NCBI GenBank assembly: GCA_964396025.1 | Contig: CAYNBT010000001.1 | Location: 109,271 to 173,270, forward strand | Direction: 5' to 3' | Length of the DNA stretch: 64,000 nt | From: an uncultured Candidatus Saccharibacteria bacterium | GTDB lineage: Bacteria; Patescibacteriota; WWE3; UBA101185; UBA10185 | Shown: positions 1 through 50,744 of the stretch, piece after piece | How the letters are laid out: every line of letters starts with the position of its first letter | Numbering within the stretch: position 1 is the stretch's first letter | Made by a program: the position numbers and the translations under genes | Notes under the pieces: generated by a model | What the model was told of the DNA's origin: nothing | Seen by the model: only the letters and a program-made list of their open reading frames with translations | Database searches by the model: none

Positions 1-897
1 ATTGAAAGCAAATACGGTACTGAAAAAAAGTAGCTGCCAAATGAGTATAAAGTACGTGGCGTCCATTCGGTATAGATCGCCCATGAAAAATACATAAGAG
101 CCTGATACAGCATCCCCCCCTGTTGATTAGAAAAAGTAGGAGAAGTAAATGGGTTTTCATAACCTTGTAAATTCACAAAACCAAAATACATGTTATAAAT
201 CACAAAAGATGCCAAGGGCAGATACATGGATATCAAAGCGACAACGCTAAATACGTTCACAAGGCGTATCTGCTTTAGATTAAAAGTAAAATATAAAAAT
301 ATTAACGTAAGGAGAATAAAAATGTTGGCAGCAAATAACCAAAACGCAAATGAACTCAGAAACAGTAAAAGCGCCAACACAATGATTGTAATATAGTCTC
401 GCTTACCTAAAAACACGCGCAAAATAAGTCCTAATGTTGCTGGGAGCAAACCATAGGTGAACGTTAGACCAACATTGTACACACCACCATGCCAGAGCGT
501 GAAAGTATATGGATTAAGCGTATACCAAAGTGTAACTCCAGTAAGCTTCAAAATATCTCCATGGGACAACTCGCGTGAAAAAAACATCTTGAATAATAGT
601 AAGAAACCTATATAGGAAAATATAAACGTAAAAAATAAGGAGCTAAAAAATATAACGACTTCCGAGAACAATACCCCAAAACCCAGCTTATACAGAATTA
701 GGAAAGAAACGGCATCCCAAAACTGGACTATGAATTGCCACGCATTATTGGCACCCATACTTTCTATCCTGCGAATAAAAAAAGCATTCAAGGCAGTCTC
801 ATAAAAACTAAAACGAAGAAAGTGATCACCTATGAATAAAAAACTATCATTAGGTAGATCTCTAAAAGCAAAGTAAATAATCCAAATTGAAACAGCA
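1..897 (-). CDS. Polytopic membrane protein, YfhO-like paralog; N-terminal part only, gene runs off window start
   Basis: Manual translation of the minus strand gives an uninterrupted hydrophobic ORF (…MLFQFGLFTLLLEIYLMIVFLFIGDHFLRFSFYETALNAF…WHGGVYNVGLTF…) with no stop up to position 1. The N-terminal pattern parallels the downstream 697-aa ORF (G[GD]xEF/HFxF about 23 aa from the start). A TTG start is inferred near 897; ATG at 849 is the alternative. Confidence 0.35.
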
Positions 898-933
898 AGA
901 AAAAAAGGTATTGGAGCCAGATATATTAGACGA

Positions 934-3027
934 CTATTTCTGTGTAACATAACTTCGGCATCTCCTGAAAACAACATACATGCACAACATAACTATGTAA
1001 GAAGAGGTTATCATGGCAGCAACATAGAAGTATAGCTGCGGCTTAAAATACAAAACAAATTTGCCATCAATATACCTATCACTTGCGTAACCGTCAGAAA
1101 ATATCTCCCAGGAGCTGCCAAAGCCTGTATCAGATACATTAAGCATGGGCAAACTCTTCACAAAAAGATATTTGATATCCAGTAAAAACGAGCTTTGCTG
1201 GGGGGTTTCTGCAGGATAAAGATGCCAGTTTGGAGAAAAATTCTGATTCAATCCAATGGTACTTAGAGAGTTGCTCTTTACATCAATCCATATCTTGGAT
1301 GGATTTAGCACTGTGTAAGATATGTTTGCGTCTTCTGAAGAGATAAGCGAGGTATCCCAAGGAAGCTCGTAAAAACCAAATGTATCATTGGCAAACAATA
1401 ATCTTGCATGTTTTATAGCAAAATCCCGAATATGCAGATCAGGTTCGATACTAGCAACATCCTTTCGAATCAAAATGTATTTAATAGGATATTTCTTTAT
1501 AGCTGATGGATCTCTGGAACGCAAAGCACTAGAGATCCCCTTATAGGAGGATTGGCTAAGTGAGGAATACATATTCAAGTGTACAAAAGGTAACTTCGAT
1601 ATTTTGGGAATCAAATCTTGCCCTAAATGGCTATTGGAAGAACTGATATTGTAAAGACCAAATTCCGTAAGTGGGCTTGGCAGAATGTAACCAAATGCAC
1701 GGTTTGAATCATTTAAGTAACTAAGTAACTCCAAATAATCATCAGAAATGCTAATGATACGATCCGAGGCTGTGGCAGTATTCTCTCCCGCAATCACTTT
1801 TCCAGAAAAAAATAAATACCCATGAACTAAACATAATATAAGCATAAAGCCCAGAAACAGTTTTTTTGCATATGCTTTATGCACTAATAACAGCAACAGG
1901 CATAAACTAAGGACTATTCCAAATCCAAACTTATTGTCAGGGGATCGAAAAATTCTAAACACAATGATCCTGTCTATTAGAAATTTAAATATTTCTCCGA
2001 ATGGCGCCTGAGGACCTTTTACTAGAAACAAAAGAACAACAAACACAACAAGCAAAACAATGTAATATTTTCTATAGATGTCTTTGGGTTTATAAAACAA
2101 AATCGTGGGATAAATTAAAATTGTAGGTAGTAAATATACAAAGCTCTTAAAGTAATTATGAAAGGTGTAGATGTTCCGCGGCTCCCAATATGTATAGATT
2201 CCCCAAGAGAACCATAAAAAAACCGGGTAAAGCAATCCTCCAGACAAGATACCATACGTATCTCCTCCACTAGCATTTACAGTAGGTGCGCCATTGAAGA
2301 ACATTTCATAAGGTATAAGCGTTAACAAAGGTGTAAGTGGAACAAACAAAAGGAAAAGTTGCATTAATCTAGTTAAGAACTTTATAGTAGAAAATCTCGT
2401 CATTAATAAAAAAAGCGTGAAATAGATGCATGCAAAGATTCCAAACACCGCAAAGAGATAAAAACCAAATGACATTAAAAATAAACTTATCGCTGCAAGT
2501 ATTTTGGTCTCCAAAGAAGTAATGTCAAAAAGACTTTTATGTAACAAATACAAGGTAAGAGGAGCTAAAGCATAACAAACAAGAAGAGACAATGAAAAGC
2601 TGTTACCGTGCCAGTATACAATTGTATAGGAGTTAAAACTATAAAAGAACGAGATTAGAAAGTGGGATAGATTGAGACTACGGTACTGAAACAAATCCTT
2701 GGCTATCAGGGAAAATCCCATGTAAGGCAACAGCGTTATGAGCAACAATTTCAGAAGCAAAAGTACACCTTGCGCCTGTATCAAATTCATGCCAAGAAAA
2801 TAAACAAAATTGTAGTATAGGATGTCAAAGAAATTAACTATGACTTGTGTCGTATTTACAATGCCAAAACTCTCAAAGACACGAGTGTTTAACGAGCTTA
2901 AAGCTTCTTCCCTAGTCATCAACATGAGTTCGTCATGAAGAAAGTAGAACTCTGAACCGCCTAATCTATACAAAAGAGACATGCATAGCACTAAAGATAT
3001 TAGTATGAGCAAAAGCTTATAATTCAT
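934..3027 (-). CDS. YfhO-like / GT-C-type polytopic membrane protein (about 12 N-terminal TM helices, about 250-aa extracytoplasmic domain, C-terminal TM)
   Basis: Architecture read from the 697-aa translation: N-terminal 430 aa strongly hydrophobic, soluble middle, terminal TM helix (YFYVAAMITSSYIVMLCMYVVF). Consistent with YfhO-family membrane glycosyl/teichoic-acid glycosylation proteins; not verified by search. Confidence 0.4.
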   Translation of the reverse strand: MNYKLLLILISLVLCMSLLYRLGGSEFYFLHDELMLMTREEALSSLNTRVFESFGIVNTTQVIVNFFDILYYNFVYFLGMNLIQAQGVLLLLKLLLITLLPYMGFSLIAKDLFQYRSLNLSHFLISFFYSFNSYTIVYWHGNSFSLSLLVCYALAPLTLYLLHKSLFDITSLETKILAAISLFLMSFGFYLFAVFGIFACIYFTLFLLMTRFSTIKFLTRLMQLFLLFVPLTPLLTLIPYEMFFNGAPTVNASGGDTYGILSGGLLYPVFLWFSWGIYTYWEPRNIYTFHNYFKSFVYLLPTILIYPTILFYKPKDIYRKYYIVLLVVFVVLLFLVKGPQAPFGEIFKFLIDRIIVFRIFRSPDNKFGFGIVLSLCLLLLLVHKAYAKKLFLGFMLILCLVHGYLFFSGKVIAGENTATASDRIISISDDYLELLSYLNDSNRAFGYILPSPLTEFGLYNISSSNSHLGQDLIPKISKLPFVHLNMYSSLSQSSYKGISSALRSRDPSAIKKYPIKYILIRKDVASIEPDLHIRDFAIKHARLLFANDTFGFYELPWDTSLISSEDANISYTVLNPSKIWIDVKSNSLSTIGLNQNFSPNWHLYPAETPQQSSFLLDIKYLFVKSLPMLNVSDTGFGSSWEIFSDGYASDRYIDGKFVLYFKPQLYFYVAAMITSSYIVMLCMYVVFRRCRSYVTQK

Positions 3028-3044
3028 ATTTAGTTGGGCAGATG

Positions 3045-4112
3045 TTATCTATAAGAAGTAAATCCGGTTTTTCGTAAGTCCCTATACACTCGCCCCACAC
3101 TATTGCGATAAATTTCCTTAGCAGGATTGTATCCATGCCTATATACCAGCTGGACAAAATAAACCAACTTAACCACAAATGTAGGCGTTAATATATATGC
3201 TACAGGAAACATAAAAATCAACAAGCTATATATTCCATAAAACTTTATAATATATCTAATCGTTTCTCTCGTAGGCCAACCCTTATACAAAAACATACCT
3301 AATTTTTGCGACATATAAAGCTTAAACGCAATCGGTAGATGTCGGATTGACCACTCTATAAACTTGGTGTTGTCAAAAATGTGATTCACGATAGTTACAG
3401 ATTTAAGATGATCAACCAGATAAAACTTAAAAAACTCACCATACTTAAATCCAACATTCCTGATTAGTATCACTGAACCTATCTCACAATATAGAAATTT
3501 ATCACTTAGAAGTAGAAGACCCAAAGTTATTTGAAAAAATATATTGTCTCTATAGTTCTGTTGCTTGATGGCATCAACAGGCAAACGTTTCTCAAGCACT
3601 ATAGTAGAAAGAAAAGTTAGACGCTGCAGAGGTTGATACTCATCCTTGAGGTCAGAAATATTTTGATAAACCTTATCTTCTTCACTCCCCCCAAGAACTT
3701 CAAGACCATAAGGATCAAGCTGTTTGTGATTAAACACAGCGACAACAGGTTGATACTTGTTTAATGCAACTAGTATCTTTTCAATAGAGTCGCTCAAAAC
3801 AGTGTCATCGTCGCACAAAAACCAAATATATCTTGTGTCCGCTAATTCATAAAGCTTGCATACGTTTCCACTATAACCTAAGTTTTCCTCATTCCTATGG
3901 AATTTAAGGTTTGGCATTTTAGCCATGTAACGTTTTACTAGCCGCTCAGTAGCACCATTATCAGGAGATTTATCATCAGATATTATAAGTTTAAAGTTGT
4001 TGTTTGTTTGCGTTGAAAACTGCTGAAGTATCTTCTCCAAGGTTTCTGGTCTGTTATATGTAGGTATACAAACTGTGAGCGAAACATCCTTAGTCATATT
4101 TTCTCGCCTCAA
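3045..4112 (-). CDS. Glycosyltransferase family 2 (GT-A fold) with C-terminal membrane anchor
   Basis: LTVCIPTYNRPETLEKIL…LIISDDKSPDNGA…FLCDDD (DXD) are typical GT2 motifs. Confidence 0.8.
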   Translation of the reverse strand: MRRENMTKDVSLTVCIPTYNRPETLEKILQQFSTQTNNNFKLIISDDKSPDNGATERLVKRYMAKMPNLKFHRNEENLGYSGNVCKLYELADTRYIWFLCDDDTVLSDSIEKILVALNKYQPVVAVFNHKQLDPYGLEVLGGSEEDKVYQNISDLKDEYQPLQRLTFLSTIVLEKRLPVDAIKQQNYRDNIFFQITLGLLLLSDKFLYCEIGSVILIRNVGFKYGEFFKFYLVDHLKSVTIVNHIFDNTKFIEWSIRHLPIAFKLYMSQKLGMFLYKGWPTRETIRYIIKFYGIYSLLIFMFPVAYILTPTFVVKLVYFVQLVYRHGYNPAKEIYRNSVGRVYRDLRKTGFTSYR

Positions 4113-4755
4113 TTAAGATTTGATACCCAAAGATTCCGGGAAAGATTTTTAGTAAAGGATCCAGTATCTCAAGACGTTTAAACTGGTTATACGCACAAAT
4201 TTTCTCAACTTTATAGCCTGCACTTTCTACAAAGGTCTTGGCAGTTTTAAGTGTGTAGAATTTTAAGTGAGTCTTATCCAAAGTACCAAATTCGGTGTAA
4301 TTCCATCGGCCAAACAATAAATTAAGGCGGTTTAGCAAAAATGCTACATTTGGTAAAGAAACAACTATCTTACCGTTTGGTTTCAGATAGGGCCTTAACT
4401 CGCTCAATAGATCTTTGGGATTGATTAGGTGTTCTAGTACATCCGCGAACAAAAACACATCATAATCCCTCGGCAATGCGGAAAGGTCGTAATTTTCACT
4501 GTTTAGGTTGATTTTGAATGTATGTCTATAACCACGAGTTCTTGCACGACCCAACATTTGTTGATTCACATCAATACCATCAACCACACATGATTTGGAT
4601 TGAGAAAGATACTCTCCCATATTCCCATCCCAACATCCCACATCCAAACATACAGAGTTGTTTGGTACCTTGCTACACACAACTCTGTTTAGCGAAGCCG
4701 AGTAATTTCCAGATTCTAATTTGTTGTCAACACTCATGATTATTCCTTTACGCAC
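4090..4755 (-). CDS. Class I SAM-dependent methyltransferase
   Basis: Motif I LDVGCWDGNMGEYL and motif post-I VVDGIDVN; about 220 aa. Confidence 0.7.
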   Translation of the reverse strand: MRKGIIMSVDNKLESGNYSASLNRVVCSKVPNNSVCLDVGCWDGNMGEYLSQSKSCVVDGIDVNQQMLGRARTRGYRHTFKINLNSENYDLSALPRDYDVFLFADVLEHLINPKDLLSELRPYLKPNGKIVVSLPNVAFLLNRLNLLFGRWNYTEFGTLDKTHLKFYTLKTAKTFVESAGYKVEKICAYNQFKRLEILDPLLKIFPGIFGYQILIEARKYD

Positions 4756-5561
4756 TTTATAAAAAATACTTCTGCATAGTTTTTGAGAAAAGTTTCGCGC
4801 ACTAGATAGTTTTCAAGCGAAATTAAATGCCTATATAAATATAATACCGGTGCAATTTTTGACAACGGTAAAAATTTGTTTAACCAGGCAAAAAGAAAAA
4901 AGAAGAGGTGTCCATCCCCAACCTCTACAATTTTAAAACCTGCATCTTTAAGCTGTTTTATTACTTCACTAATGTTTACAGGGTATTTATCGGGAATCAC
5001 TCCATCTACAACAAGATCTTCCGGAAACTTGTTTTTAAGAATATCTGAGAATAATGCGAACATAAATCGGCCAAATTTGATAAAGGGGTTTCTTGACGAT
5101 AAGTCGTTAAGAAAAAACTTCCCGTTTTTCTGAAGTTTTGCATAAATTTCCTTGAATATATCTTCATGATTTCGGGAGTGGTGGAGCACATGTAGCATGA
5201 ACGCACCTTCTACAGATGAATTCTGCATTTGTGGAATTTTATTGTCGTTAATTTTAAAAAACGAGTATTCTGGATAGTTTTTCTTTGCTTTGTTCACAGC
5301 TGCTTCGGCAATATCAACCCCAGTTATGCTGTATTTAGCTCTGTCTCGATTTTCAAAAAATATATCCAGAGACGTTCCTGTACCACAACCATACTCTAAA
5401 ATTGATTTTGAATCTTGCAACCAATCAAAACAATAAAACTGCTCTTTGTTTGCATAATCATAAAATATATCTTTCTCCACACTGGGCTTCTCTTTAAGGG
5501 AATTTTCATTAAAGAATAATTCCTGATCTTGTTGGATGTTTCTTTTAGGTAAGTTGAACAT
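4740..5561 (-). CDS. Class I SAM-dependent methyltransferase
   Basis: LEYGCGTGTSLDIFF (GxGxG motif I) and ITGVDIAEAAV (motif II). Start trimmed to the internal Met (MFNLPKR…) to avoid a 61-nt overlap with the upstream gene. Confidence 0.65.
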   Translation of the reverse strand: MFNLPKRNIQQDQELFFNENSLKEKPSVEKDIFYDYANKEQFYCFDWLQDSKSILEYGCGTGTSLDIFFENRDRAKYSITGVDIAEAAVNKAKKNYPEYSFFKINDNKIPQMQNSSVEGAFMLHVLHHSRNHEDIFKEIYAKLQKNGKFFLNDLSSRNPFIKFGRFMFALFSDILKNKFPEDLVVDGVIPDKYPVNISEVIKQLKDAGFKIVEVGDGHLFFFLFAWLNKFLPLSKIAPVLYLYRHLISLENYLVRETFLKNYAEVFFIKCVKE

Positions 5562-5563
5562 AT

Positions 5564-6160
5564 CTAAATCTTTCTCAGTGTAACAACTAACTCCGTTGCA
5601 CCGCCAACCCAGTAACACCAACAACGTTCGAAGAATACTGGACTTACATTAATCAATAAATTCAAGGCTAGCACAAAAGGACGTGCAAACAACGGGCACT
5701 GATTAGCATGAATGTACTGAGCATAAAAACCCGAGTTAGGATAAAGTCCCAAATACCTAATCTCCTTGTGTACAATCTCAAATTCCTTTGTTGTGTAAAA
5801 GTGTTGATAATCCGCCTTTTGAAAACAATCGAAGCTAAGGTACCCAAACGGGCGAACATGTGTTATGTCAGTAAACGCTCCCATGGAGGAAAAATGAGGT
5901 ACGCGTAAATATAAAACACCTTTTGGTTTAAGAATGCGATGAAGTTCTTCAACCTTGTGTAGTGGATCATGTAAGTGCTCCAAGACATGATACATGTGAA
6001 TTTCATCAGCATAATTGCTGTCGAATGGGTATGGAGTAACATCTAGGTTATGTACTACATCTACGAAACCCTCTATTGGAACTAAATCTACACCTATTGA
6101 CTGAGGCAAACGTGTCTTACCACACCCTATGTTTAAAATCACTTTGTCTGTGGAACGCAT
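5564..6160 (-). CDS. Class I SAM-dependent methyltransferase (Methyltransf_11-like)
   Basis: VILNIGCGKT…SIGVDLVP…YHVLEHLHDP…LKPKGVLYLRVPH pattern. Confidence 0.7.
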   Translation of the reverse strand: MRSTDKVILNIGCGKTRLPQSIGVDLVPIEGFVDVVHNLDVTPYPFDSNYADEIHMYHVLEHLHDPLHKVEELHRILKPKGVLYLRVPHFSSMGAFTDITHVRPFGYLSFDCFQKADYQHFYTTKEFEIVHKEIRYLGLYPNSGFYAQYIHANQCPLFARPFVLALNLLINVSPVFFERCWCYWVGGATELVVTLRKI

Positions 6161-6188
6161 ATAGTAAAAAGTATAGCACTAAATTGTT

Positions 6189-7247
6189 TCATGCCTTACC
6201 TATATCGGTGTAAATATCTACAAATCGTTGTGCTCTATTATGATATGTGTGATCTGCAAGAACTCTGAGTCTGCCTGCTTCTGATATGGCGCGGCGTTCC
6301 TCAGGATGTTTCATGTAGTAATCTATCTTTTCACGCCATTCTTGAGGTGTTTTTGCCATCACTATCTCTTTTTCCTGTACAAAGTATTTACCGATACATT
6401 CTACATAATCACTAACTTCAAAGCCTCCACAGGCTGGGATTTTGAAGGTTCTTTCGTTGCAATCTTTGCCAAATTCTCTCTGATACTCTTCATGAATGTT
6501 TAGTGAAATTTTGGACGAACTATAAATTCTACGTTCATCATCTAGACCTAGGGTTGGTTTTTGAATATCTTTTACTACAGGCAGATTGAAGTATTTTCCA
6601 AAGCGAGACACCCATCCCATAAGTCTATCGTAACTAGTCCAATCTTGTCCTAAGAGCATTACTTTATATTTTTCCCGTAACGGGAAAACATGGTTTTTTA
6701 TGAATGCTCTTTTTTCTGGCAGAAACGTACCCAAAAAAGAAATATCACAGTCAAACTTGTTAGAAAAATCATAATAATGTTTTGTTTTATCCGCCGCTAA
6801 TGGGATTGTGTAGTATGGATAGCCTGTGGCTTCTTGAAATCCTTCCATTCTGGGATCCCCCTGCTCTGATACCGTATAGTACACGTCACCAAAATTCCCT
6901 GATGTTATCAGGTCAACATATTCTGCATTCGTTTTTAATCCTGGGGTTTCATTAAGGCGTAATGAGCTAAAAGGAGAAGTCCAAAAAGGTGTGTTTACAA
7001 ATATCTTGGTGCCATTTTGCTTCATTTTTTTCACGCCATCAAAATTCAAGAATTTCAAAACATAACTGTTCATGCTAGTAAAAAAAATGTGCGGAGCAAA
7101 CTCCTCCACTACCGAGATCTGCGAATCGTTTGCTGTAAGAAACCTAAAGTTATGCCCGAGAGCTAAGAAAGCATTCTTGTAACCCTCAATGATAGTACGA
7201 TTTGCATAAACAGTATTTAAATGTGGGACATAATACAAAATATTCAT
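6189..7247 (-). CDS. CgeB-like glycosyltransferase (DUF3880 + Glyco_trans_1_2-like C-terminus)
   Basis: C-terminal …KTPQEWREKIDYYMKHPEERRAISEAGRLRVLADHTYHNRAQRF… is typical of the CgeB / GT1_2 family. Start set at MNILYYVPH. Confidence 0.5.
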   Translation of the reverse strand: MNILYYVPHLNTVYANRTIIEGYKNAFLALGHNFRFLTANDSQISVVEEFAPHIFFTSMNSYVLKFLNFDGVKKMKQNGTKIFVNTPFWTSPFSSLRLNETPGLKTNAEYVDLITSGNFGDVYYTVSEQGDPRMEGFQEATGYPYYTIPLAADKTKHYYDFSNKFDCDISFLGTFLPEKRAFIKNHVFPLREKYKVMLLGQDWTSYDRLMGWVSRFGKYFNLPVVKDIQKPTLGLDDERRIYSSSKISLNIHEEYQREFGKDCNERTFKIPACGGFEVSDYVECIGKYFVQEKEIVMAKTPQEWREKIDYYMKHPEERRAISEAGRLRVLADHTYHNRAQRFVDIYTDIGKA

Positions 7248-8419
7248 TGAGTGGCGTCTAGAGGTATACCCAAGTAAGAGCAAATATCGGTACAGATGTT
7301 CTGATAGTCAAAGCTCTTAGCATATTTAAGAGCGTTGTTTCTATATAACGCATTAACATCTCCCCGCATCAAGTACTCAAGTTTGGTTGCAATATCAAGC
7401 GGGTCCTCTGTAATGATCAAACCACATTTACTTTCTTCAATCTCACGTGCGTTCCAAGGTATATCCGTAAGTAACACAGGCACGCCGCAGCCCAAGTATG
7501 TTTTAACTTTTCCAGGATCCGCATAATACGACCACGTATCAAGTTCTTTCATATAAGGTGCAATGGCGACGCTTGAATTGGCCACCTCAACTTCCAAGTC
7601 CTTGTTCTCTTTGATTTTACCTAAAAACTCACATCTAGAAGAAAATGAGGATTTTGCTGCGAGTGCTTCGAGGTCTTTTCTGAAACTACCATCCCCGATT
7701 ATTTTGAATTTTAGATTCGGAACCTTTTTTACTAACTCGGGAAGAGCTTGAAGAATAAGCTGCACCCCCTGCTTTGGAATCAAATGTCCCATAAAAACCA
7801 GGGTGTTCTTTTCACAACTTTCGTAGGGTATAACTTTGATTCTACTCAACCACATGCCGTAAGGTACTACCCTATGTTTCTTGTAATCAGTATCCTTAAC
7901 ACCCAAAAACTCCTTACGGGCTTCCTTCATTCTAGGAGATAGATCCCACATCTCATCTACGCGTGTGTAGCTACTTGTGTTAATAAATTCATATATCTTG
8001 TGTTTGAGTTTTGAAGAAAACCTTTGCGTCGGTACAAAATCCACTGCCCAAAATACGGTTTTGCTTACCAAACCAAGAGCTCTAGCCACATTACCAAACA
8101 AAGAGCATAAGCCATCCATACCTATCAAACAATCCCACTTACGCCCCGAGGTGATTATCCAAGATAACGTGTAAAAAAACTCTTTAAGATATAGGAGAGG
8201 TTCGGGCAGCATCTTAAAATCCACGCTGCGATGCTCTTTGTATAGTGCTCCATTTTTATACCAATTATAATAACTACACCTGTCTTTGGCATCGGAAAAG
8301 CTGTGCATGATATGCAAAACTTCGCATTTGGTGTGTTTGTTCAAGAAAATCACCAAATCATCATCCATCTGTGGCAAGTATTTGTGGGAAACTATTAGAA
8401 GCTTCGAGTTACTCTGCAT
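7244..8419 (-). CDS. Glycosyltransferase family 4 (GT-B, Glycos_transf_1)
   Basis: FMGHLIPKQGVQLILQALPEL…KFKIIGDGSFRKDLEALAA…GCGVPVLLTD (EX7E-type region). Start trimmed to [14 protein letters not shown]. Confidence 0.75.
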   Translation of the reverse strand: MQSNSKLLIVSHKYLPQMDDDLVIFLNKHTKCEVLHIMHSFSDAKDRCSYYNWYKNGALYKEHRSVDFKMLPEPLLYLKEFFYTLSWIITSGRKWDCLIGMDGLCSLFGNVARALGLVSKTVFWAVDFVPTQRFSSKLKHKIYEFINTSSYTRVDEMWDLSPRMKEARKEFLGVKDTDYKKHRVVPYGMWLSRIKVIPYESCEKNTLVFMGHLIPKQGVQLILQALPELVKKVPNLKFKIIGDGSFRKDLEALAAKSSFSSRCEFLGKIKENKDLEVEVANSSVAIAPYMKELDTWSYYADPGKVKTYLGCGVPVLLTDIPWNAREIEESKCGLIITEDPLDIATKLEYLMRGDVNALYRNNALKYAKSFDYQNICTDICSYLGIPLDATQ

Positions 8420-24677: not shown

Positions 24678-25842
24678 ATATTTGATTTATTTGGGCTGCC
24701 TTTGCATCCCAAGAGTAGCGTTGGGCAATCTTTTGAGTATCAACAAAGATGCTCGAGTCAACTACGTGCTTAATCTGTTCAGCTATCTTTTCGGGGGCTA
24801 GATCTTCTAAATAAACTAGACCTTCTATTACATCTTGCGCCTTAAATCCTGAAACCAGCGCAGGCACACCACAGGAAAGAACCTCCATCACAACCTTGGG
24901 AAAACCTTCAACTTTGGAAGGCAAAACAAAGATGTCTGCCGCCTGAATAGCAACCGGTATGGACGGGTAAGGCGTATATCCAATTTTTATAAAACGATCA
25001 GAAAGATTGAGTTCTCTTACGCGCTCGTTCAATCTCTCCATGTAAGCTTCGTCACCATCCCCCAATAATATTAATTTGTACTCGAGTGGTAAAAGTGCCA
25101 ATGCCTCTATAAGTAAATGGATGTTCTTTCTTTCAACAAGCGCACCATAATTCAAAATCACTTTATCGTGCGGGATAAGTCCCAACTCTTTGCGTGTCTT
25201 ATCTTGTTCGTCCGGTGTAATCTTTTTAAACAAGGCCGGATTAACTCCAGATTCAACAATATAACATTTTGCAGGATCTGTTTTGTAATATTTAATTGCG
25301 TCTGATCTTAGCTCTTCTCCCACAAAAATACATGCATCTGCAACGTCCGATGCGAGTTGGTTGGCAAAAATCTCAAGAGGCCAAGTAAGCATTCCAGATA
25401 CAAACTTGGGCTGCTCTCCTTTTTCCTTCATTTTCTCCCAACGGCTTTTTGCAATGATATGAAAGTGCGCTACTAAGGGTATCTTCAGTTCAGAACATTT
25501 AGGTAAAAAGTATTTAAGTAATTTCCTATAAAAAAAGATCCATATACCAAAATGCCCATGCGCATGTATCACATCTGGTCTGTTACTCAAACGCCAATAT
25601 AGATAGTAGATAAACATAGCAGGTGCGATAGTCAATGCAAGAGTTCCAGATATAGGCTCTCTAAAGAAAGTGCGGAGATTTACATTAGGAATACTTTCCG
25701 GCTTTCCACTGTTGGGCCAACTGCCACAGAACACTGTTATTTTGTGACCCAATCTGCTTTGTGCGGAAGTTACCTCAAATGGGTGAGGTACTAAACCCAA
25801 CCATGGAGGAGGCCATTCGTAACTAATTCTTAGAATATTCAT
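24649..25842 (-). CDS. Glycosyltransferase family 4
   Basis: Glyco_trans_4-like N-terminus; C-terminal …FVLPSKVEGFPKVVMEVLSCGVPALVS… (GT4 E-x7-E region). Confidence 0.75.
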   Translation of the reverse strand: MNILRISYEWPPPWLGLVPHPFEVTSAQSRLGHKITVFCGSWPNSGKPESIPNVNLRTFFREPISGTLALTIAPAMFIYYLYWRLSNRPDVIHAHGHFGIWIFFYRKLLKYFLPKCSELKIPLVAHFHIIAKSRWEKMKEKGEQPKFVSGMLTWPLEIFANQLASDVADACIFVGEELRSDAIKYYKTDPAKCYIVESGVNPALFKKITPDEQDKTRKELGLIPHDKVILNYGALVERKNIHLLIEALALLPLEYKLILLGDGDEAYMERLNERVRELNLSDRFIKIGYTPYPSIPVAIQAADIFVLPSKVEGFPKVVMEVLSCGVPALVSGFKAQDVIEGLVYLEDLAPEKIAEQIKHVVDSSIFVDTQKIAQRYSWDAKAAQINQIYEKILSKAN

Positions 25843-27028
25843 TCATAACCTCATTAAAAACTTGTTCGTATTTACTAATCATAACATCAAGCGTAAACAG
25901 TTGCTGAGCCTCTTGGCGACTATATGTTCCAAATTGTTTCCTAAGCTCAAAGCTCTGCTCTAAAAGGAGCATTTTGGTTTTTAGCTCCAAAAGATCTCCA
26001 GATTTCACTAGATATCCGTTTTTTTCACTTTCCACAGCATCAGAATTTCCGCCTTTGTCAGAAGCAATTACAGGTAAACCACAGAACATCGCCTCAACAA
26101 TAGTCATAGGAAATCCTTCAACTCGAAGCGTAGGAAGAACAAATATGTCCATTTTGACCAATTCCCCCATAACCTGCGAGTATGGAATAGTACCGTGGAA
26201 ATGTACTCTTGTCTCAATAGACAAAACATGCGCAAGCCTTTTTAGAGTCGCTAGTTCCGGACCAGCGCCAATGATATGAAGAAAAGCGTTCTTAAAACTG
26301 CCATCTGCAAAGGCTCGGAGAAGCACATGGACGCCTTTCGAAGAATCCAGTCTGCCCAAATAAACAAAATTCACTTTTTCAGAGGCAGAGGCAGAATAGT
26401 CTTTGGAAATAGCTGGAACTTTGACGCCGTTATGAATCACTACAATTTTGGAGGGACTCACAAAGGTTTCCTCAATAATACTTGTTTTGACATAGTTAGA
26501 AACCGCTACAAGTCTTGTAGATCCATGCACAAATTCGCGTTGGGTAAAAAAGAAAGCATAAAAGACATGTGGTAAATCTAACATCAATCTCAAAAATTCT
26601 TTTATCCCTGAAAAACTTTCCCATCGAGATTGAAATTCTCCCACTTTACTTCCGTGCAATATAGAAACTATCGGGACTCCAAGCTTTTCCTTGACTTTAA
26701 AGAGTCCCAATGCACCGGAACTCTGACTCAGTATCAGATCAAACTTTTCACTTGCTGTACGGCTAATGTAAGCTTCAATGGATTTTTGATTCCAGGTTTT
26801 TGAAAAAAGGGAGAATAAAAGATTGAAACCTCTTACTACACAAGGCACGAACACATACTCAACGTTATTTTCATGATATGAGGTAACGGTAAGATTGCGT
26901 TGAGGCGAGAAAACTACGATTTTGTGTCCTCTCAGGGCTAATCCTTCACACAAAAGCTTATTCTGAGTTTCAAACCCTCCATAACTCTTATGCAATGTAG
27001 TGTTTTTGATAAAGACAGCAATATTCAC
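25823..27028 (-). CDS. Glycosyltransferase family 4
   Basis: …YLGRLDSSKGVHVLLRAF…IFVLPTLRVEGFPMTIVEAMFCGLPVIASDKGGN…. Confidence 0.8.
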   Translation of the reverse strand: MNIAVFIKNTTLHKSYGGFETQNKLLCEGLALRGHKIVVFSPQRNLTVTSYHENNVEYVFVPCVVRGFNLLFSLFSKTWNQKSIEAYISRTASEKFDLILSQSSGALGLFKVKEKLGVPIVSILHGSKVGEFQSRWESFSGIKEFLRLMLDLPHVFYAFFFTQREFVHGSTRLVAVSNYVKTSIIEETFVSPSKIVVIHNGVKVPAISKDYSASASEKVNFVYLGRLDSSKGVHVLLRAFADGSFKNAFLHIIGAGPELATLKRLAHVLSIETRVHFHGTIPYSQVMGELVKMDIFVLPTLRVEGFPMTIVEAMFCGLPVIASDKGGNSDAVESEKNGYLVKSGDLLELKTKMLLLEQSFELRKQFGTYSRQEAQQLFTLDVMISKYEQVFNEVMNEYSKN

Positions 27029-27040
27029 ATATACATTGTA

Positions 27041-28348
27041 TCAAGAAAGGAGTAATTCTTGGAGTTGCTTAACGTTAGTATCAAGATGAAACATCTCTGA
27101 GGCTTTTTTAAATGCATGTTTGACCAAGCTTTCTCGTACAACATGATTATGCAACAAATTCTCAATCTGATCCGCAAGGGCATGCGAATCTTTTTGTGGA
27201 ATGACGATACCTGTTACATTGTGCTCAACTAGGTCTGTTATACTACCTGCGGATGTAGCAATTATGGGGATTTTGGCTAAAGCTGCCTCTATTACAACAG
27301 TCGGAACGCCATCCATATCTCCTTCATTTGTTTCAATACTTGGAAACACAAAAATGTCTGCAATTTTATAGTAATCAACCACTTGATCGAACGGAGTTCC
27401 CTTACCTTCACCATGAATAAAAACATTATCAGACAGTCCAAGCTCGTGTATTTGATCTTGTAATTCTTTGTACAGGGGCCCAGGGCCAACTATTTCTACC
27501 TGATGGTCTACGCCCCTACTCTTAAGTATCTTTGATGCTTCAATAACATATTTAATGCCTTTCTTCTCCACCAAACGTGTTCCACCCATAAATATTACAG
27601 GTCTTTGGGGTTTCACTAATCTCGAATCCCCCGCGAATATTTTCTCGTGATCAATACCGTGATAAATCAGTTTAACCTTTGGCTTTAACTCAAGAGGAAT
27701 TTGATCCACAACTGTTTGCCAGGTTCTTTTGTTACATATTGCTATGAACTTTGCATACTGTGCTTTTGTAGCAATAAGCGAATTATCAACTATGGCATCC
27801 TTAGCATGCGCAGAAATACTAAATGGAATATGCAAAACATGCGCAGCAACCATAGCAATTGTTGAGAAACTTGACAAAAAATGTACATGAATATGATCCG
27901 GCTTATACTCACTGAAAATCTTTGCATAGGCAACTCCTTTTAGCATGTAAAAAATTCGTGCCTTATGAAATCGACCAACAATGCTGGAATGATCTTCGTG
28001 TGCATTCTGAGCCCTAAGATTTAAGAACAGTGGTTCCTTGTCCGAACCAGATATCAACTTAAAAAGCTCGATTATTCTGCGTGGGCTAAAGAGAAGATAT
28101 TTGACAAAGGCGCTTATCGCAATACGCGCAGTAAGTCTTTGATATACAACAGCACGCCTTGCTAGTTCGGACATTGTACCGCTGGCAGGAGATAACGAGA
28201 GGATTCTGATATCCATTTGATCAAGTTCAAGGAGTTTAGTGATCTCACGCTCAATAAAGGTCTCAGTTAGACGTGGGAATTCTGGAACAAAGTACAAAAC
28301 TTTTTTCTTGCGTAAAGTAGGTTGCTTATTTTCCATTTTTTTCATCAT
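27041..28348 (-). CDS. Glycosyltransferase family 4
   Basis: …FMGGTRLVEKKGIKYVIEA…IFVFPSIETNEGDMDGVPTVVIEAALAKIPIIATSAGS…. Confidence 0.8.
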   Translation of the reverse strand: MMKKMENKQPTLRKKKVLYFVPEFPRLTETFIEREITKLLELDQMDIRILSLSPASGTMSELARRAVVYQRLTARIAISAFVKYLLFSPRRIIELFKLISGSDKEPLFLNLRAQNAHEDHSSIVGRFHKARIFYMLKGVAYAKIFSEYKPDHIHVHFLSSFSTIAMVAAHVLHIPFSISAHAKDAIVDNSLIATKAQYAKFIAICNKRTWQTVVDQIPLELKPKVKLIYHGIDHEKIFAGDSRLVKPQRPVIFMGGTRLVEKKGIKYVIEASKILKSRGVDHQVEIVGPGPLYKELQDQIHELGLSDNVFIHGEGKGTPFDQVVDYYKIADIFVFPSIETNEGDMDGVPTVVIEAALAKIPIIATSAGSITDLVEHNVTGIVIPQKDSHALADQIENLLHNHVVRESLVKHAFKKASEMFHLDTNVKQLQELLLS

Positions 28349-29696
28349 TCAATATTGCGTAAGGCCCGCTTTTACTTATGTGTTCACTACCATTGGTTTT
28401 TTTACCAATCGCAAAATAGGTAGCACCCGCATCCTCTATCTCTCTTTGATTAAGAATATTACGCCCATCAAAAACCATTTTTCCCGCCAGGTTTTTAATG
28501 ATTGAAGCATTCAAATTTCTAAATTCATCCCATGGGGTAAGAACACATAAAGCATCTACATCCTTAACAGCATCTGAAATATCGGTCGCATAATGTATCT
28601 GCCCATCTCCAAGCATCTTGCGAGCATTCTCCATAGCAGCGGGATCATATACGCGTAATGTTGCTCCCCTACCTCTCAACAATCTAACAAGTGCTACAGC
28701 AACTGAATCTCTTGTATCATCTGTGTTTTCCTTAAATGCCAAACCCAAGCATGCGAAAGTTTTACCCGAAAGGTTTTCCCCCATAGCATGAACGATTTTG
28801 CGCAAAAAGAAATGCTTCTGGATATCATTAACCTCCATGACACCACGTAAAAGCTTAAAGTCATATGCCTGATCTGTGGATGTTTTGTAAAGTGCAGCAA
28901 CATCTTTTGGAAAACAACTACCGCCGTAACCAATAGATGCGTTCAAAAACTTGGGTCCAATTCTTTTATCAAGCCCCATGCCCTTTGCGACGGTTGTGAC
29001 ATCGGCACCAGCACGCTCGCATATTTGGGCAATCTCATTTATGAAAGATATTTTTGTAGCCAAAAAAGCGTTAGAGGCATACTTAATCATTTCAGCTGAG
29101 CGCAAATCACATTCTACTAAGGGAGCATCCAGATGCGCATAAAGTCTTTTCATGATATCCATCGCCTTTTTAGATTCTGCTCCAACAACTGTCCTATCCG
29201 GATTACGCATATCTTCAATGGAATATCCCTCTTTTAAAAATTCGGGATTTGAGGCTACATCAAATTCAACGGAAGTGTCTAGAAGATTCTCTTTAACTAT
29301 TTTTTTTACGTACTCGTTAGTACCCACAGGAACAGTACTTTTTGTCACAATCACTTTGTAGGAGGTTAGGTTTCTGCCAATGTCTTGTGCTACTTTGGTT
29401 ACCGCAGTAAGATCTGCGGCACCTGTATCACCCTGAGGTGTTCCAACACATATAAACACTATTTCCGCATCTGACATCGCTTCTTTTAAGTTTGTGGTAA
29501 ATTTTAAGCGACCTTCGCTGATATTTTTTAGCACTACTGGAGCAAGATCGGGCTCATAGATAGGCATGATACCCTTTTTAATCTTTTCTACTTTAGCTGT
29601 ATCAATGTCGAGTCCAACGACATCATTACCCCAATCCGCAAATATTGCTGAACCAACTAAACCTACATATCCTGTGCCAATAACACAAAGTTTCAT
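28326..29696 (-). CDS. ugd: UDP-glucose 6-dehydrogenase (nucleotide-sugar dehydrogenase family)
   Basis: MKLCVIGTGYVGLVGSA… Rossmann N-terminus; catalytic GGSCFPKD motif. Start set at MKLCVIG (AAGGAG 5 nt upstream on the minus strand). Confidence 0.85.
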   Translation of the reverse strand: MKLCVIGTGYVGLVGSAIFADWGNDVVGLDIDTAKVEKIKKGIMPIYEPDLAPVVLKNISEGRLKFTTNLKEAMSDAEIVFICVGTPQGDTGAADLTAVTKVAQDIGRNLTSYKVIVTKSTVPVGTNEYVKKIVKENLLDTSVEFDVASNPEFLKEGYSIEDMRNPDRTVVGAESKKAMDIMKRLYAHLDAPLVECDLRSAEMIKYASNAFLATKISFINEIAQICERAGADVTTVAKGMGLDKRIGPKFLNASIGYGGSCFPKDVAALYKTSTDQAYDFKLLRGVMEVNDIQKHFFLRKIVHAMGENLSGKTFACLGLAFKENTDDTRDSVAVALVRLLRGRGATLRVYDPAAMENARKMLGDGQIHYATDISDAVKDVDALCVLTPWDEFRNLNASIIKNLAGKMVFDGRNILNQREIEDAGATYFAIGKKTNGSEHISKSGPYAILNDEKNGK

Positions 29697-29781
29697 AGGA
29701 CTCCTTATTGCACGCAATCAGTACAACCACGTGCGTTAAATAATTTACACACAATAACAAAAAGTAGCAAAAGACTGCATA

Positions 29782-30606
29782 TTAGTTTTTATTGTATTTT
29801 CCTCTGAGATCATTAAGTTTGACTTTTACAACATCTAAGAAATTATCAATCGAAGCTCTAATAGGAGGAACACGATTAGTCTTTACATATGTCCAAGAAA
29901 CGGGAATCTCTTTGGTTTTAAAACCCAACCTTTTGGCAATCACCAACACTTCTACGTCAAAAGCACTTACACGAGGACGTTTCGTTTCTGGTGTATTGTC
30001 GCCAAAAAGAATCATCCTTGAAAAGATTTCTGCGCAAGCATTTTGTGTAAACAGTTTAAAACCACATTGAGTGTCGTTTATCTTGGGTAACACCAATAAT
30101 CTAACCAAGAAATTAAATCCCCTTCCCATAATATGACGAATCAACGGCTCATTTTTTCTTAAAGCCCCTACTCCTTCGCGGGAGGCTATCACAACATCAT
30201 AATCATGCTCTTGCACCCATGTAAGAAGGCGCTTAAGTTCCTCGATGGGGGTTGCCATATCCGCATCGGCCATAAGTATATATTTTCCCCGAGAACTCAA
30301 CATGCCTGTTCTAACTGCTACACCTTTTCCTTTGTGTGGATTCTTTATCAAGTGGATTTCTGGATGATATATTGCGTAATTCTCCACGATCTCAGCAGTT
30401 TTATCGGCACTGCCATCATCTACAACTATTATTTCATAAGCAACCGGCGTAACTTTATCTGATGACGAATCCCGTATGCTGAAAGAATTCATAAAATTTA
30501 CTATCTGAGTGAGTGAGGCAGTGATACCTGATTCTTCATTGTAGGCAGGTATAACTACACTAATGTCTGGGAGTTCGTCTTGAATTAATGAATCTAATTT
30601 TTCCAT
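29782..30606 (-). CDS. GT2 polyprenol-phosphate sugar synthase-like (DPM1-like)
   Basis: ISVVIPAYNEESGI…IIVVDDGSADKT…ILMADADMATPIEEL. Confidence 0.75.
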   Translation of the reverse strand: MEKLDSLIQDELPDISVVIPAYNEESGITASLTQIVNFMNSFSIRDSSSDKVTPVAYEIIVVDDGSADKTAEIVENYAIYHPEIHLIKNPHKGKGVAVRTGMLSSRGKYILMADADMATPIEELKRLLTWVQEHDYDVVIASREGVGALRKNEPLIRHIMGRGFNFLVRLLVLPKINDTQCGFKLFTQNACAEIFSRMILFGDNTPETKRPRVSAFDVEVLVIAKRLGFKTKEIPVSWTYVKTNRVPPIRASIDNFLDVVKVKLNDLRGKYNKN

Positions 30607-31709
30607 ATAATTTTGCTATAAACTGTAAAGTTCCAAATTAAACCTATGACCACTCCTATCATAAACGCAACATTCGCAACGAGAATTGTATCAGAGAAGC
30701 GTGCCGTTGCAAGATTTACAAGAAAGCTTCTAAAAGCGATGGGCACATAGGATAGCACAATATAGGCAAGTAGTTTTTTTAAAGTCTGGGCATTTCCTTG
30801 AATCTTCCTGTCACTAAATGACCAATAGTTGTTAAGTGTGTATGTTGTCAACATAGCTAAAAATCCCGAGACCGCACTCGACATGCTTGAAGCAAATATC
30901 AAGTATCTAAGTAAGTTAAATAAACTGATATCCGTGAACATTCCAATAAATCCCACGATACAGAATTTAAAAAAGCTCTTGCTTTCATTATATCTCAACA
31001 TAAGAACCACTTTGATAGAATCTTGCAGATTGTTTCTTTCCATCTTTGAATCACCGCGATCCCGCAAACCAAAAGTTATGGGTATTTCAGTAATCTTGGC
31101 TCCAATCTTGTACATTTTAAATAGTAAATCAATCTTATAAGCAAAACCGCTAGATCTTACTGTAGTCAAATCAATCTTATCCAAGAAGCCTTTTACGCGA
31201 GAAGCTTTGTAACCCGATGTAAAGTCATTTATTGTATAAATACCTAGCACAACCTTAGAAAACAAACTGCCTCCCCAGCTCAACAACTTTCTGTGCAGCG
31301 ACCAATGCTTTGGAATAGATCCTCCGGAGATAAATCTTGATCCAATAACATAATCACTGCCCTTTTCTAACTCTGCAACGAAACGTCTTATATCTTGCGG
31401 GTCGTGTTGAAAATCAGCATCCATTTCGATCAAAACATCTGGTGAAAGATTACTTAGGGCGTAACTAAAACCATACATGTATGCAGCTCCTAAGCCTGCT
31501 TTCTTTTGCTCCGTTAAAAGCTGAAGAAATGGATACTTAGCAGATAATTCGGAAACGAGCTTTCCTGTACCATCTGGAGAATTACCATCCACAATTAAAG
31601 CAACAAATTGATGCTGAGGTAATCGAGAAAACTCAGTAGCAAGCACGGGCGCTAGCTTACTTACATTCTCGAACTCATTGTAAGTAGGAATAACAATTAC
31701 TATCTTCAT
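30594..31709 (-). CDS. GT2 (DPM1/GtrB-like) fused to C-terminal GtrA-like 4-TM domain
   Basis: KIVIVIPTYNEFENV…LIVDGNSPDGT…IEMDADFQHDP then FCIVGFIGMFTDISLFNLLRY…YTLNNYWSFSD (GtrA-family pattern). Confidence 0.75.
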   Translation of the reverse strand: MKIVIVIPTYNEFENVSKLAPVLATEFSRLPQHQFVALIVDGNSPDGTGKLVSELSAKYPFLQLLTEQKKAGLGAAYMYGFSYALSNLSPDVLIEMDADFQHDPQDIRRFVAELEKGSDYVIGSRFISGGSIPKHWSLHRKLLSWGGSLFSKVVLGIYTINDFTSGYKASRVKGFLDKIDLTTVRSSGFAYKIDLLFKMYKIGAKITEIPITFGLRDRGDSKMERNNLQDSIKVVLMLRYNESKSFFKFCIVGFIGMFTDISLFNLLRYLIFASSMSSAVSGFLAMLTTYTLNNYWSFSDRKIQGNAQTLKKLLAYIVLSYVPIAFRSFLVNLATARFSDTILVANVAFMIGVVIGLIWNFTVYSKIIWKN

Positions 31710-31726
31710 GTATGAGAATTATATAA

Positions 31727-31999
31727 TTAAAGGTTCAAAACACCTAGTAACAGCAAAAAAACGAACGAACCGAACAAGATGTATTCAAGAGCCACAAGTC
31801 TGTTAAGCCTACCCTCAAGGCGATGATGTATTATCCCCCATAACATGTAAAAGGTGCTACCAACACCTGCGAGTATTGTTTGTAAGACAGGCATGTTTTG
31901 AAAACGGAACATCAATAAAAGATATACAAACATCCCACAGATTAAAACCAAATAATGTATCAGATGCTTGTACTCACTCTGATTGTAATCGTGTTTCAT
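31727..31999 (-). CDS. Small 2-3 TM membrane protein, hypothetical
   Basis: 90-aa ORF, hydrophobic, translationally coupled (4-nt overlap) with the upstream CAP-domain gene. Confidence 0.35.
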   Translation of the reverse strand: MKHDYNQSEYKHLIHYLVLICGMFVYLLLMFRFQNMPVLQTILAGVGSTFYMLWGIIHHRLEGRLNRLVALEYILFGSFVFLLLLGVLNL

Positions 32000-32886
32000 A
32001 ATACCTTTCCTGGATTAACTACAAACAACAAACTCATTAGTACCACTATCAAATAGAAAATGTGAGCAAGAGTATGCCCTGTGAATTTTGGTATGGAATG
32101 TCTTTTTGTATACCAAATATCTAGTGCAAGTAATATCAATACAAATGAAACAAAAAGTACCGCTAGATATTTTGATACAACTGCTATATCTACTATCACA
32201 TCGTTGAGCCCCTGAAGCTTGTATTTGTTGTATCTAGCTTCGGCAGCAGAATCAGCAGCTGAAGCAAGCTCATACTTAGAGAGCAATGCTTCTTCATCCT
32301 GCAAAGTTGCTATTAATGAAGGGTTTCTGGGCCTTCCAAACATTTGTACAACTAAAGTTGTTTCATAACCCTCTAGTACACCGTTCACAACCGCAAAGCC
32401 AATCTCATCGTAGTTTGCGTTGAGCAGATTATCTCTATGTGTGGGAGATTTGTACCAAGCATCAACCACGGCTCGAGAATCATGGAAATTTTTGGCAAGA
32501 TTCTCACCCGCGTAAGTGTAATCATAATTTTCATCAAGTATAAATCCCCAAGGTTCAGTCCCATCGGGAGCGATGTGTGCCCAATAGTTGTTAAGGAACA
32601 TGTGTGCGGCCTTCTTTTCTGCGGCATTTGTAAGTGATGGATTTAACCTCAAACGTGATAAACCGTGTTCCGCGCGAATACTGTTTGTCTCTTGAAGTAG
32701 TTCTTTTACAGCAATACTTGATGTAAAGCCCAAAACTCCAGGGGAAACCTTAACGGACATGGTAGCTAAGAACGAAAATAAAACCAGAAAAAGGCTGTAC
32801 ATAAGAAATGCTTTAGGTTGCAAAAGTACAGCTCTACTTCTTTTTACAGGATCTGGTACAAAATGGTGTTTAATTTTCCTAGGCAT
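31996..32886 (-). CDS. CAP/SCP/PR-1-like domain protein with N- and C-terminal TM helices
   Basis: …GENLAKNFHDSRAVVDAWYKSPTHRDNLLNANYDEIGFAV… matches the CAP-domain (YkwD-like) signature; first gene of the minus-strand operon. Confidence 0.55.
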   Translation of the reverse strand: MPRKIKHHFVPDPVKRSRAVLLQPKAFLMYSLFLVLFSFLATMSVKVSPGVLGFTSSIAVKELLQETNSIRAEHGLSRLRLNPSLTNAAEKKAAHMFLNNYWAHIAPDGTEPWGFILDENYDYTYAGENLAKNFHDSRAVVDAWYKSPTHRDNLLNANYDEIGFAVVNGVLEGYETTLVVQMFGRPRNPSLIATLQDEEALLSKYELASAADSAAEARYNKYKLQGLNDVIVDIAVVSKYLAVLFVSFVLILLALDIWYTKRHSIPKFTGHTLAHIFYLIVVLMSLLFVVNPGKVL

Positions 32887-50713: not shown

Positions 50714-50744
50714 TTGACAAATGCCCCATAGTTGTGTAATATTG

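Follow-up and report, generated by a model that had tools for sequence, protein, structure and literature searches.

A one-strand locus rich in GT-C glycosyltransferases and predicted lipid-phosphate sugar synthases in a WWE3-type bacterium of the Candidate Phyla Radiation

In mycobacteria and corynebacteria, arabinogalactan and lipoarabinomannan are assembled by membrane glycosyltransferases of the GT-C superfamily (AftA-D, EmbA-C, Mpt, PimE), for which Ppm1-type GT2 enzymes make polyprenyl-phosphate arabinose and mannose donors. Smaller three-component systems (GtrA/GtrB/GtrV; CsbB/GtcA/YfhO; ArnC/ArnEF/ArnT; PPPRS/MATE flippase/GT136 of C. youngae) combine a synthase, a flippase, and a GT-C enzyme. 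The locus considered here brings the same three components together on the minus strand at 3-32886 of a 64,000-nt stretch of contig CAYNBT010000001.1 (positions 109,271-173,270), referred to below as the window. We propose, with somewhat better than even confidence, that it is a vertically inherited cell-envelope glycan assembly locus, consisting of two adjoining modules, of a WWE3-type bacterium of the Candidate Phyla Radiation (CPR). The enzyme kinds and the assembly logic are already known. What is unusual is the presence of seven GT-C enzymes and four lipid-phosphate sugar synthases within 33 kb, the deep conservation in a CPR lineage, and the part taken by two GT-C families that are effectively uncharacterised. 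The literature searched contained no account of the locus. The original prediction, made from the DNA letters and a list of open reading frames (ORFs), was a multi-step outer-face glycosylation system, and this stands as the most reasonable reading of the GT-C enzymes, synthases, flippases, and GDP-fucose, UDP-glucuronate (UDP-GlcA), and methyltransferase genes found together. The specific forms named for it, protein O-glycosylation or S-layer decoration, are one option among several. The outer-face reading is supported by the description of a three-component system with a MATE/MOP flippase as donor carrier and a GT-C enzyme with a C-terminal carbohydrate-binding module (CBM) (PMC11127046). 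An exceptional abundance of glycosyltransferases was noted in WWE3 (Kantor et al., 2013; PMC3812714).

The GT-C enzymes in the window number seven: four by Pfam or paralogy, two by fold search, and g01 as a paralogue of g02, in agreement with the six or seven lipid-carrier-dependent enzymes predicted. With about three more just past the window start, the whole locus would hold about ten GT-C-like proteins. All seven candidates are polytopic and have an acidic residue in the first outer loop, and in small ortholog alignments (4-21 sequences) every GT-C-like family shows an invariant acidic residue directly after transmembrane (TM) helix 1 (D32 in g01/g02, D32/D37 in g14/g16, D35-E36 in g15, E34/D37 in g21, and D52/D57 in g19). 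The four enzymes predicted to be PMT/ArnT-like are supported as such by Pfam, clearly for two of them and at threshold for a third, and by paralogy for the fourth. The gathering score of PMT_2/PMT, families akin to GT39 and GT83, is exceeded by g15 (14861-16378; PF02366 59.8 bits, PF13231 56.7 bits) and g21 (23100-24677; PF13231 35.6 bits) and just reached by g14 (13255-14886; PF13231 26.2 bits against a cutoff of 26.1), while g16 (16359-17912; PF13231 21 bits) falls below it and is placed in the family as a paralogue of g14 (BLASTP 4e-41). Comparison by hhalign, run here and below locally on shallow alignments, linked the g14 family to the g15 and g21 families at 87-90% probability; a phmmer search of PDB with g15 gave no match. 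The DUF2079 protein g19 (20282-22402), predicted as such and identified by Pfam, has in its structure model a GT-C fold with a C-terminal beta-sandwich domain, and the best Foldseek matches of this model are the oligosaccharyltransferases STT3, PglB, and AglB and the C-mannosyltransferase DPY19. By sequence, hhalign gave no link of DUF2079 to other GT-C families. No mention of DUF2079 was found in a search of 8 million full texts.

The remaining two GT-C candidates, g01 (3-950, cut by the window start; full length in the contig L001 and, with 753 aa, in L018) and g02 (934-3027, 697 aa), are paralogues with 32% identity. In g02, approximately 11-12 TM helices are followed by an outer domain rich in beta structure and by one last TM helix. 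The pair had been called YfhO-like. This identity was rejected, as the YfhO profile (PF09586) is not matched at E<=10 and none of the tests run pointed to YfhO. The g01 fragment and g02 have no Pfam or NCBIfam match even at E<=10; there is no direct match to GT-C_AftD (PF11847) either, whose gathering score is not reached. In the fold search, AftD was the nearest fold for both proteins, which have an AftD-like GT-C super-domain of approximately 11 TM helices, an outer part made of a mixed alpha/beta and a beta-sandwich domain, and a re-entrant TM helix. A word-indexed search with the g02 family found 29 relatives, the labelled ones all Patescibacteria, and an exhaustive profile search found 5,606 representatives at E<=1e-3. 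One distant member, P0288, matches the g02-family profile at 4e-51, scores 85.4 bits on PF11847, and aligns directly with g02 by BLASTP at 2e-12 across 461 residues. By bridging the two profiles, P0288 indicates, through a transitive link, that g01 and g02 belong to the AftD-type GT-C enzymes, as a divergent branch that lacks annotation. Searches of PDB sequences with profiles of the g02 and DUF2079 families gave nothing useful. In another homologue, P0206 (1101 aa), a GT2 domain at the N-terminus is naturally fused to an AftD-like GT-C part, and this GT2 domain resembles the N-terminus of g03 (3045-4097), the gene adjoining g02. By the Rosetta-stone argument, this fusion hints that g03 and g02 cooperate. 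The idea that g03 is a fifth lipid-phosphate sugar synthase was rejected since its PDB matches are generic GT2 enzymes.

In its logic, the two-compartment assembly line proposed here resembles mycobacterial arabinogalactan and lipoarabinomannan assembly, and also a series of three-component systems stacked together. However, g01 and g02 reach approximately 700-750 aa, half the length of AftD, whose three CBMs and TM13-16 are missing from them. The window also has no UbiA/DprE-type genes for decaprenyl-phosphate arabinose, the sugars implied are fucose, GlcA, and methyl sugars, and the host belongs to CPR rather than to actinobacteria. The acceptor of AftD is a glycan, and this bears on a different explanation of the locus, in which Ser/Thr residues of S-layer proteins, pilins, or other surface proteins would receive sugars directly from polyprenyl-phosphate donors through the PMT-type GT-C enzymes and perhaps DUF2079, with the other enzymes elongating and methylating the protein-bound glycan. 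Such protein O-glycosylation is consistent with the Pfam PMT match of g15, with the oligosaccharyltransferases and DPY19 heading the Foldseek matches of DUF2079, and with the similarity of the DPMS-like GT2 enzymes to PgfS and AglJ, which stays below the family cutoffs. S-layers are known from CPR cells. Abundant pili have been reported on such cells (Luef et al., 2015, as cited in 10.1101/335083). Nevertheless, the nearest fold of g01 and g02 points to a glycan acceptor, the PMT_2 family is unspecific as to protein acceptors, and the cluster encodes no candidate acceptor protein unless it is the CAP-domain protein g28. Furthermore, the seven to ten GT-C enzymes far exceed the number in any protein O-glycosylation system known to us. 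We regard protein O-glycosylation as a plausible but rather unlikely account of the locus.

The donors for the outer-face enzymes would come from four of the six GT2 proteins, g12, g20, g26, and g27, whose best solved homologues are polyprenyl-phosphate glycosyltransferases (DPMS, ArnC, and GtrB). As judged from these closest characterised homologues, the four proteins are probable lipid-phosphate sugar synthases, and the prediction of three or four DPM1/GtrB-like synthases is thereby upheld at the higher number. The clearest case is g27 (30594-31709; PF00535 and PF04138), a putative polyprenyl-phosphate hexose synthase of the archaeal DPMS type, which matches Pyrococcus furiosus DPMS (5mlz) at 1.1e-40 over residues 1-363, its full length, including the GtrA-like membrane domain. 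The others are likewise putative polyprenyl-phosphate sugar synthases: g12 (11210-12022) is DPMS-like (5mlz, 1.3e-12, residues 2-215), g20 (22403-23098) resembles ArnC (9bhc, 1.7e-20) and DPMS (7e-14), and g26 (29782-30606) is DPMS-like (1.9e-12) with matches to ArnC and GtrB too. In the likeness to three-component systems, the adjacent g20 and g21 behave as a unit, both being missing in the related contig L017, and their joint loss fits a pair of donor synthase and GT-C enzyme. However, in the known three-component systems one GT-C enzyme attaches one sugar as a side chain, whereas four synthases and seven to ten GT-C enzymes are stacked here, and, in contrast to CsbB/GtcA/YfhO, no member of the locus belongs to YfhO. 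A second likeness is to the archaeal Agl pathways. In addition to the full-length similarity of g27 to Pyrococcus DPMS, g20 resembles AglJ (109 bits, below the cutoff of 325), and the occurrence of a Wzx-like flippase beside lipid-phosphate sugar synthases and GT-C enzymes recalls AglR/AglS. Yet no STT3/AglB is present by sequence (a 20-bit fragment match, in g15), no Agl model was passed at cutoff, and the organism is bacterial. PMT-family GT-C enzymes are also combined with DPM1-like GT2 enzymes in Ppm1/Pmt protein O-mannosylation of actinobacteria and in the Pgf system of S. mutans, the models for the O-glycosylation explanation, the similarity to PgfS being below cutoff, but the locus has far more enzymes, together with Leloir glycosyltransferases, methyltransferases, and AftD-type enzymes.

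Transport of lipid-linked sugars could be served by two MOP/Wzx-like flippases, g13 (11991-13277; Polysacc_synt_3 60 bits, 11 TM helices) and g18 (18822-20285; Polysacc_synt_3 69.8 bits, 14 TM helices), the start of the latter overlapping the stop of g19 by 4 nt, and by g17 (17890-18825), a flippase-like membrane domain of the MprF type (LPG_synthase_TM, PF03706 142.6 bits; TIGR00374 72.8 bits); Pfam bears out the prediction for all three. The other genes of the locus were also largely foreseen, except that Pfam corrects the GT2 count from five to six and the GT4 count from five to four. The two GT2 proteins resembling ordinary Leloir enzymes are g03, with two C-terminal TM helices (PF00535 73.8 bits), and g11 (10377-11213; PF00535 130.6 bits), which is of the EpsE/TuaG-like type, the EpsE and TuaG models of NCBIfam being the best matches but below cutoff. 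Three GT4 enzymes, g22 (24649-25842; Glycos_transf_1 90.4 bits), g23 (25823-27028; 129.8 bits), and g24 (27041-28336; 115 bits), adjoin the UDP-glucose 6-dehydrogenase Ugd, g25 (28326-29696; three UDPG_MGDP_dh domains at 229.6, 129.5, and 112.4 bits). The fourth, g08 (7244-8419; Glyco_trans_1_4 69.5 bits), is located between the CgeB-like glycosyltransferase g07 (6189-7247; Glyco_trans_1_2, PF13524 104.9 bits) and the two genes of the GDP-L-fucose pathway, both present: the GDP-L-fucose synthase Fcl, g09 (8409-9341; NCBIfam equivalog NF047922 503.5 bits against a cutoff of 500), and the GDP-mannose 4,6-dehydratase Gmd, g10 (9325-10380; PF16363 519.4 bits, full length). The single CgeB-like enzyme, gmd-fcl, and ugd are as predicted, and so are, by Pfam, the three S-adenosylmethionine (SAM) methyltransferases, g04 (4090-4737; Methyltransf_23 65 bits), g05 (4740-5561; Methyltransf_23 52.4 bits), and g06 (5564-6160; Methyltransf_23 36.3 bits, Methyltransf_11 36.1 bits), and the membrane-anchored CAP/SCP-domain protein g28 (31996-32886; PF00188 73.7 bits), which heads the cluster here and in L015-L017.

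Flippases of the MOP type, Leloir GT2 and GT4 enzymes, and sugar-nucleotide genes are also the components of Wzx/Wzy loci, and the related contig L017 has a PglC-type primer of the Bac_transf family inside its GT4 block. One could argue for a common type of capsule or O-antigen-like cluster that depends on Wzx/Wzy, or else for an accessory glycan island gained by horizontal transfer; the 561-, approximately 727-, and 489-aa polytopic proteins encoded off the window (see below), which have no assigned family, could hide a polymerase. However, among the in-window proteins, Pfam detects Wzx-like proteins only, and no Wzy, Wzz, EpsG, or export component, in line with the predicted lack of a polymerase and a chain-length regulator; no priming phosphoglycosyltransferase family was found in any window ORF searched. 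GT-C enzymes dominate the locus, and seven of them with four lipid-phosphate sugar synthases are foreign to the Wzx/Wzy scheme. An acquired island is contradicted by the native composition of the locus, with a GC content at third codon positions (GC3) of 0.346 against 0.335 in the housekeeping rest of the window and a correlation of relative synonymous codon usage (RSCU) of 0.97, and by its synteny with relatives, which extends to the flanking YmdB-CAP neighbourhood. An explanation of this kind, whether as a Wzx/Wzy cluster or as an island, is very improbable.

The synteny is seen in L015 (contig CAZILK010000001.1), where the order from g28 to g13 is identical (CAP, small ORF, g27, g26, ugd, three GT4, GT-C, GT2, DUF2079, Wzx, LPG_TM, three GT-C, Wzx), with one-to-one orthologues at 34-70% identity. 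The order of families is the same in L014, L016, and L017, and three of the related contigs (L015, L016, and L017) reach the CAP end. Approximately 7 kb further along the L015 contig, the section named L012 carries a series of methyltransferase, GT2, AftD-like, 543-, 136-, and 671-aa proteins, and the intervening stretch includes opposite-strand epimerases. The left third of the locus is a cassette (Wzx, GT2, fucose/epimerase genes, GT2, GT4, CgeB-like, methyltransferases, GT2, two AftD-like, polytopic series) conserved in nine species-representative genomes, including WWE3, Roizmanbacteria, and Levybacteria metagenome-assembled genomes (MAGs); in the last two (L008 and L013), it has different neighbours. 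The YmdB-to-CAP neighbourhood of the window is common to relatives. The locus had been taken for the accessory-genome part of the window. With GC3 and RSCU matching the flanks and colinearity in L014-L017 and L012, this did not hold: native codon usage, conserved order in WWE3-type relatives, and the shared YmdB-CAP neighbourhood indicate a locus ancestral to the lineage. Placement of the host as a WWE3 (Katanobacteria)-type CPR bacterium is based on RecA and on the cluster homologues. The best named relatives of the window RecA belong to candidate division WWE3 (73-81% identity), and the MAGs with homologues of the cluster are those of WWE3, Patescibacteria, Roizmanbacteria, and Levybacteria. 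Several locus-bearing MAGs (L009, L010, and L012/L015) carry the record label "uncultured Candidatus Saccharibacteria bacterium". RecA on the contig of L009 (P0298) is 79% identical to the window RecA; as the other named relatives of the window RecA are WWE3, these labels may be wrong.

The layout of the locus was described beforehand as about 28 tightly spaced co-directional genes, and the one-strand run is confirmed, while the number of genes and the spacing have to be revised. The ORF listing, with refined start codons, gives 27 complete minus-strand ORFs within 934-32886 and one truncated at the window start (3-950). Spacing between neighbouring genes lies within -32 to +28 nt except at two junctions, where it is +85 nt (29697-29781) and +286 nt (31710-31995). 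The latter gap is filled by a minus-strand ORF of 90 aa (31727-31999), which encodes three hydrophobic segments, predicted as TM helices, and overlaps the stop of the CAP gene by 4 nt. L015, L016, and L017 have it in the corresponding place with 36-48% identity (tblastn), and the protein family has the motif WGIIHH...E.RL...EY.LFG. Conserved in this way in three related loci, it is a real gene that had been overlooked. The in-window block thus has 29 genes, with a coding fraction of approximately 99%. The minus strand also carries 25 of the 31 genes in the rest of the window, and the cumulative GC skew declines steadily, so that the run is less extreme than coin-flip odds would make it; with the bias taken into account, its probability is roughly 0.8^29, about 0.002. 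Even with this strand bias, it is not a product of chance.

The strand bias of the flanks is one of the observations that favour yet another explanation, according to which the locus is a co-oriented collection of independent systems, i.e., two Wzx-type glycan units and several three-component modules, brought together by the strong strand bias of a small genome and its packing into operons. Its modules vary separately (g20 and g21 are missing in L017, g17 in L014), the left cassette has other neighbours in L008 and L013, and the halves are separated in L015/L012 by approximately 7 kb with opposite-strand epimerases. However, the order of approximately 28 genes is kept in four other contigs at 34-70% protein identity, which would be hard to maintain without functional coupling, and overlapping start and stop codons at most junctions suggest co-translation. 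On balance, a mere assemblage of unconnected systems appears improbable, somewhat more so than protein O-glycosylation.

The locus does not end at the window start, contrary to what had been assumed. The contig L018 (from the Logan collection of assemblies), with 99.65% DNA identity to positions 1-4012 of the window, extends 5.3 kb further on the same strand with the full g01 (753 aa), a 561-aa polytopic protein, a 129-aa protein with four TM helices, and a protein of at least 650 aa. In L002, a relative with 76-89% protein identity, further members follow, first a polytopic protein of 489 aa and then a PMT_2-type protein of at least 358 aa. Since the same-strand series runs on for at least 5.3 kb past base 1, the left boundary of the cluster was set merely by where the window starts. 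In all, the locus is at least 38 kb long, of which 33 kb are in the window, and probably 45-50 kb; in L015/L012 it covers approximately 50 kb. The conserved series of membrane proteins past the window start (L018:3036-9324 and L002:3950-12980) is nearly without Pfam families. It comprises the 561/567-aa polytopic protein, the 129-aa four-TM protein, GtrA-like in size, a protein of approximately 727 aa with a signal peptide and large outer domains, the 489-aa polytopic protein, and the PMT_2-type protein. By hhalign, the 489-aa family is weakly linked to PMT_2-type families (59%) and the 567-aa family to the AftD-like family (34%), and no sequence link of the 727-aa protein to GT-C families was found.

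The mechanism that we favour for a vertically inherited envelope glycan locus is inferred, in all its steps, from family membership, fold, and synteny. It assumes that cytoplasmic Leloir enzymes build one or more oligosaccharides linked to a carrier lipid. In the right module, the three GT4 enzymes would be supplied with UDP-GlcA by Ugd; in the left one, GT2, GT4, and CgeB-like enzymes would be supplied with GDP-fucose by Gmd and Fcl. The three SAM methyltransferases would O-methylate the sugars, and the priming phosphoglycosyltransferase would be encoded outside the window. Next, g12, g20, g26, and g27 may load single sugars onto polyprenyl phosphate, and the lipid-linked species would be carried to the outer face by the two MOP/Wzx-like flippases, the MprF-type domain, and the GtrA-like domain of g27. 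There, the seven in-window GT-C enzymes (four of the PMT_2 type, DUF2079, and two of the AftD type), several of which appear to bear glycan-binding-like beta-sandwich domains, would transfer or extend sugars on the outer side of the membrane, yielding a complex surface polymer or lipoglycan with fucose, glucuronate, and methyl sugars.

Several points weigh against this proposal. A primer, a polymerase, a ligase (LCP, WaaL), and a known acceptor are not encoded in the window, so that one pathway leading to one product is an assumption. The acceptor could be a protein or a lipid, because PMT and PMT_2 also cover protein O-mannosyltransferases and the lipid A-modifying ArnT. The variation of modules among relatives (g17 out in L014; g20 and g21 out in L017) equally fits several independent decoration systems. 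Consensus scans of positions 1-35000 found fewer promoter-like sites than in shuffled sequence and terminators at chance level, and were thus uninformative on operons.

CPR/Patescibacteria account for much of bacterial diversity and depend on other cells or are attached to them, and their envelope chemistry is essentially unknown. As one of the largest conserved gene blocks in these genomes of approximately 1 Mb seems given over to outer-face glycan assembly, what it makes probably matters for the integrity of the envelope or for contact with the host. It also supplies functional context for two "dark" families, DUF2079 and the AftD-like branch, the latter with thousands of members and no Pfam model that captures it. 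Its pairs of synthase and GT-C enzyme could be tested for use in glycoengineering. A far-reaching version of the proposal holds that WWE3-type CPR bacteria build a major envelope polymer, a lipoglycan or wall polysaccharide rich in fucose, glucuronate, and O-methyl sugars, mainly outside the membrane, with a mycobacterium-like set of approximately ten GT-C enzymes, including DUF2079 and the unannotated, CPR-centred AftD-type branch, fed by four lipid-phosphate sugars, as the first such line outside Actinobacteria; if so, it could be central to surface presentation by these epibiont-like cells. We offer this version as a speculation that is doubtful in its full form. An early report on a WWE3 genome described an incomplete peptidoglycan pathway (PMC3812714) and prompted the idea that WWE3 lacks peptidoglycan and that the locus makes the wall. 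This idea is weakened by a D-Ala-D-Ala carboxypeptidase (Peptidase_S11, 143 bits) encoded at 47535-48566 on the minus strand, which suggests that the organism handles peptidoglycan.

Other features of the window lie outside the locus. Four ORFs of 164-384 aa, at 33587-34081 (minus strand), 35717-36562 (plus), 46378-47532 (plus), and 60340-60921 (minus), are without a Pfam match. Just outside the cluster, a SET-domain protein (PF00856, 44 bits) is encoded at 32946-33509 on the plus strand and a deoxyhypusine synthase homologue (PF01916, 319.5 bits) at 34618-35691 on the minus strand; bacteria are not where these two families are best known, most knowledge of them coming from eukaryotes and archaea. 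The tRNA and Rfam scans found no match anywhere in the window. One ORF-free stretch of 1.09 kb, at 50714-51806 between recJ and secF, has a GC content of 0.47-0.56 against approximately 0.38 for the window; it also gave no tmRNA match, and no counterpart beside secF was present in 11 distant metagenome loci. On the plus strand, positions 50780-51720 fold far more stably than shuffled controls (z = -11.35), and 200-nt windows along the stretch reach z = -6 to -11, with weaker values on the minus strand. Several long hairpins and no direct repeats were found in it, and the stretch is a candidate for a large structured non-coding RNA of unassigned class.

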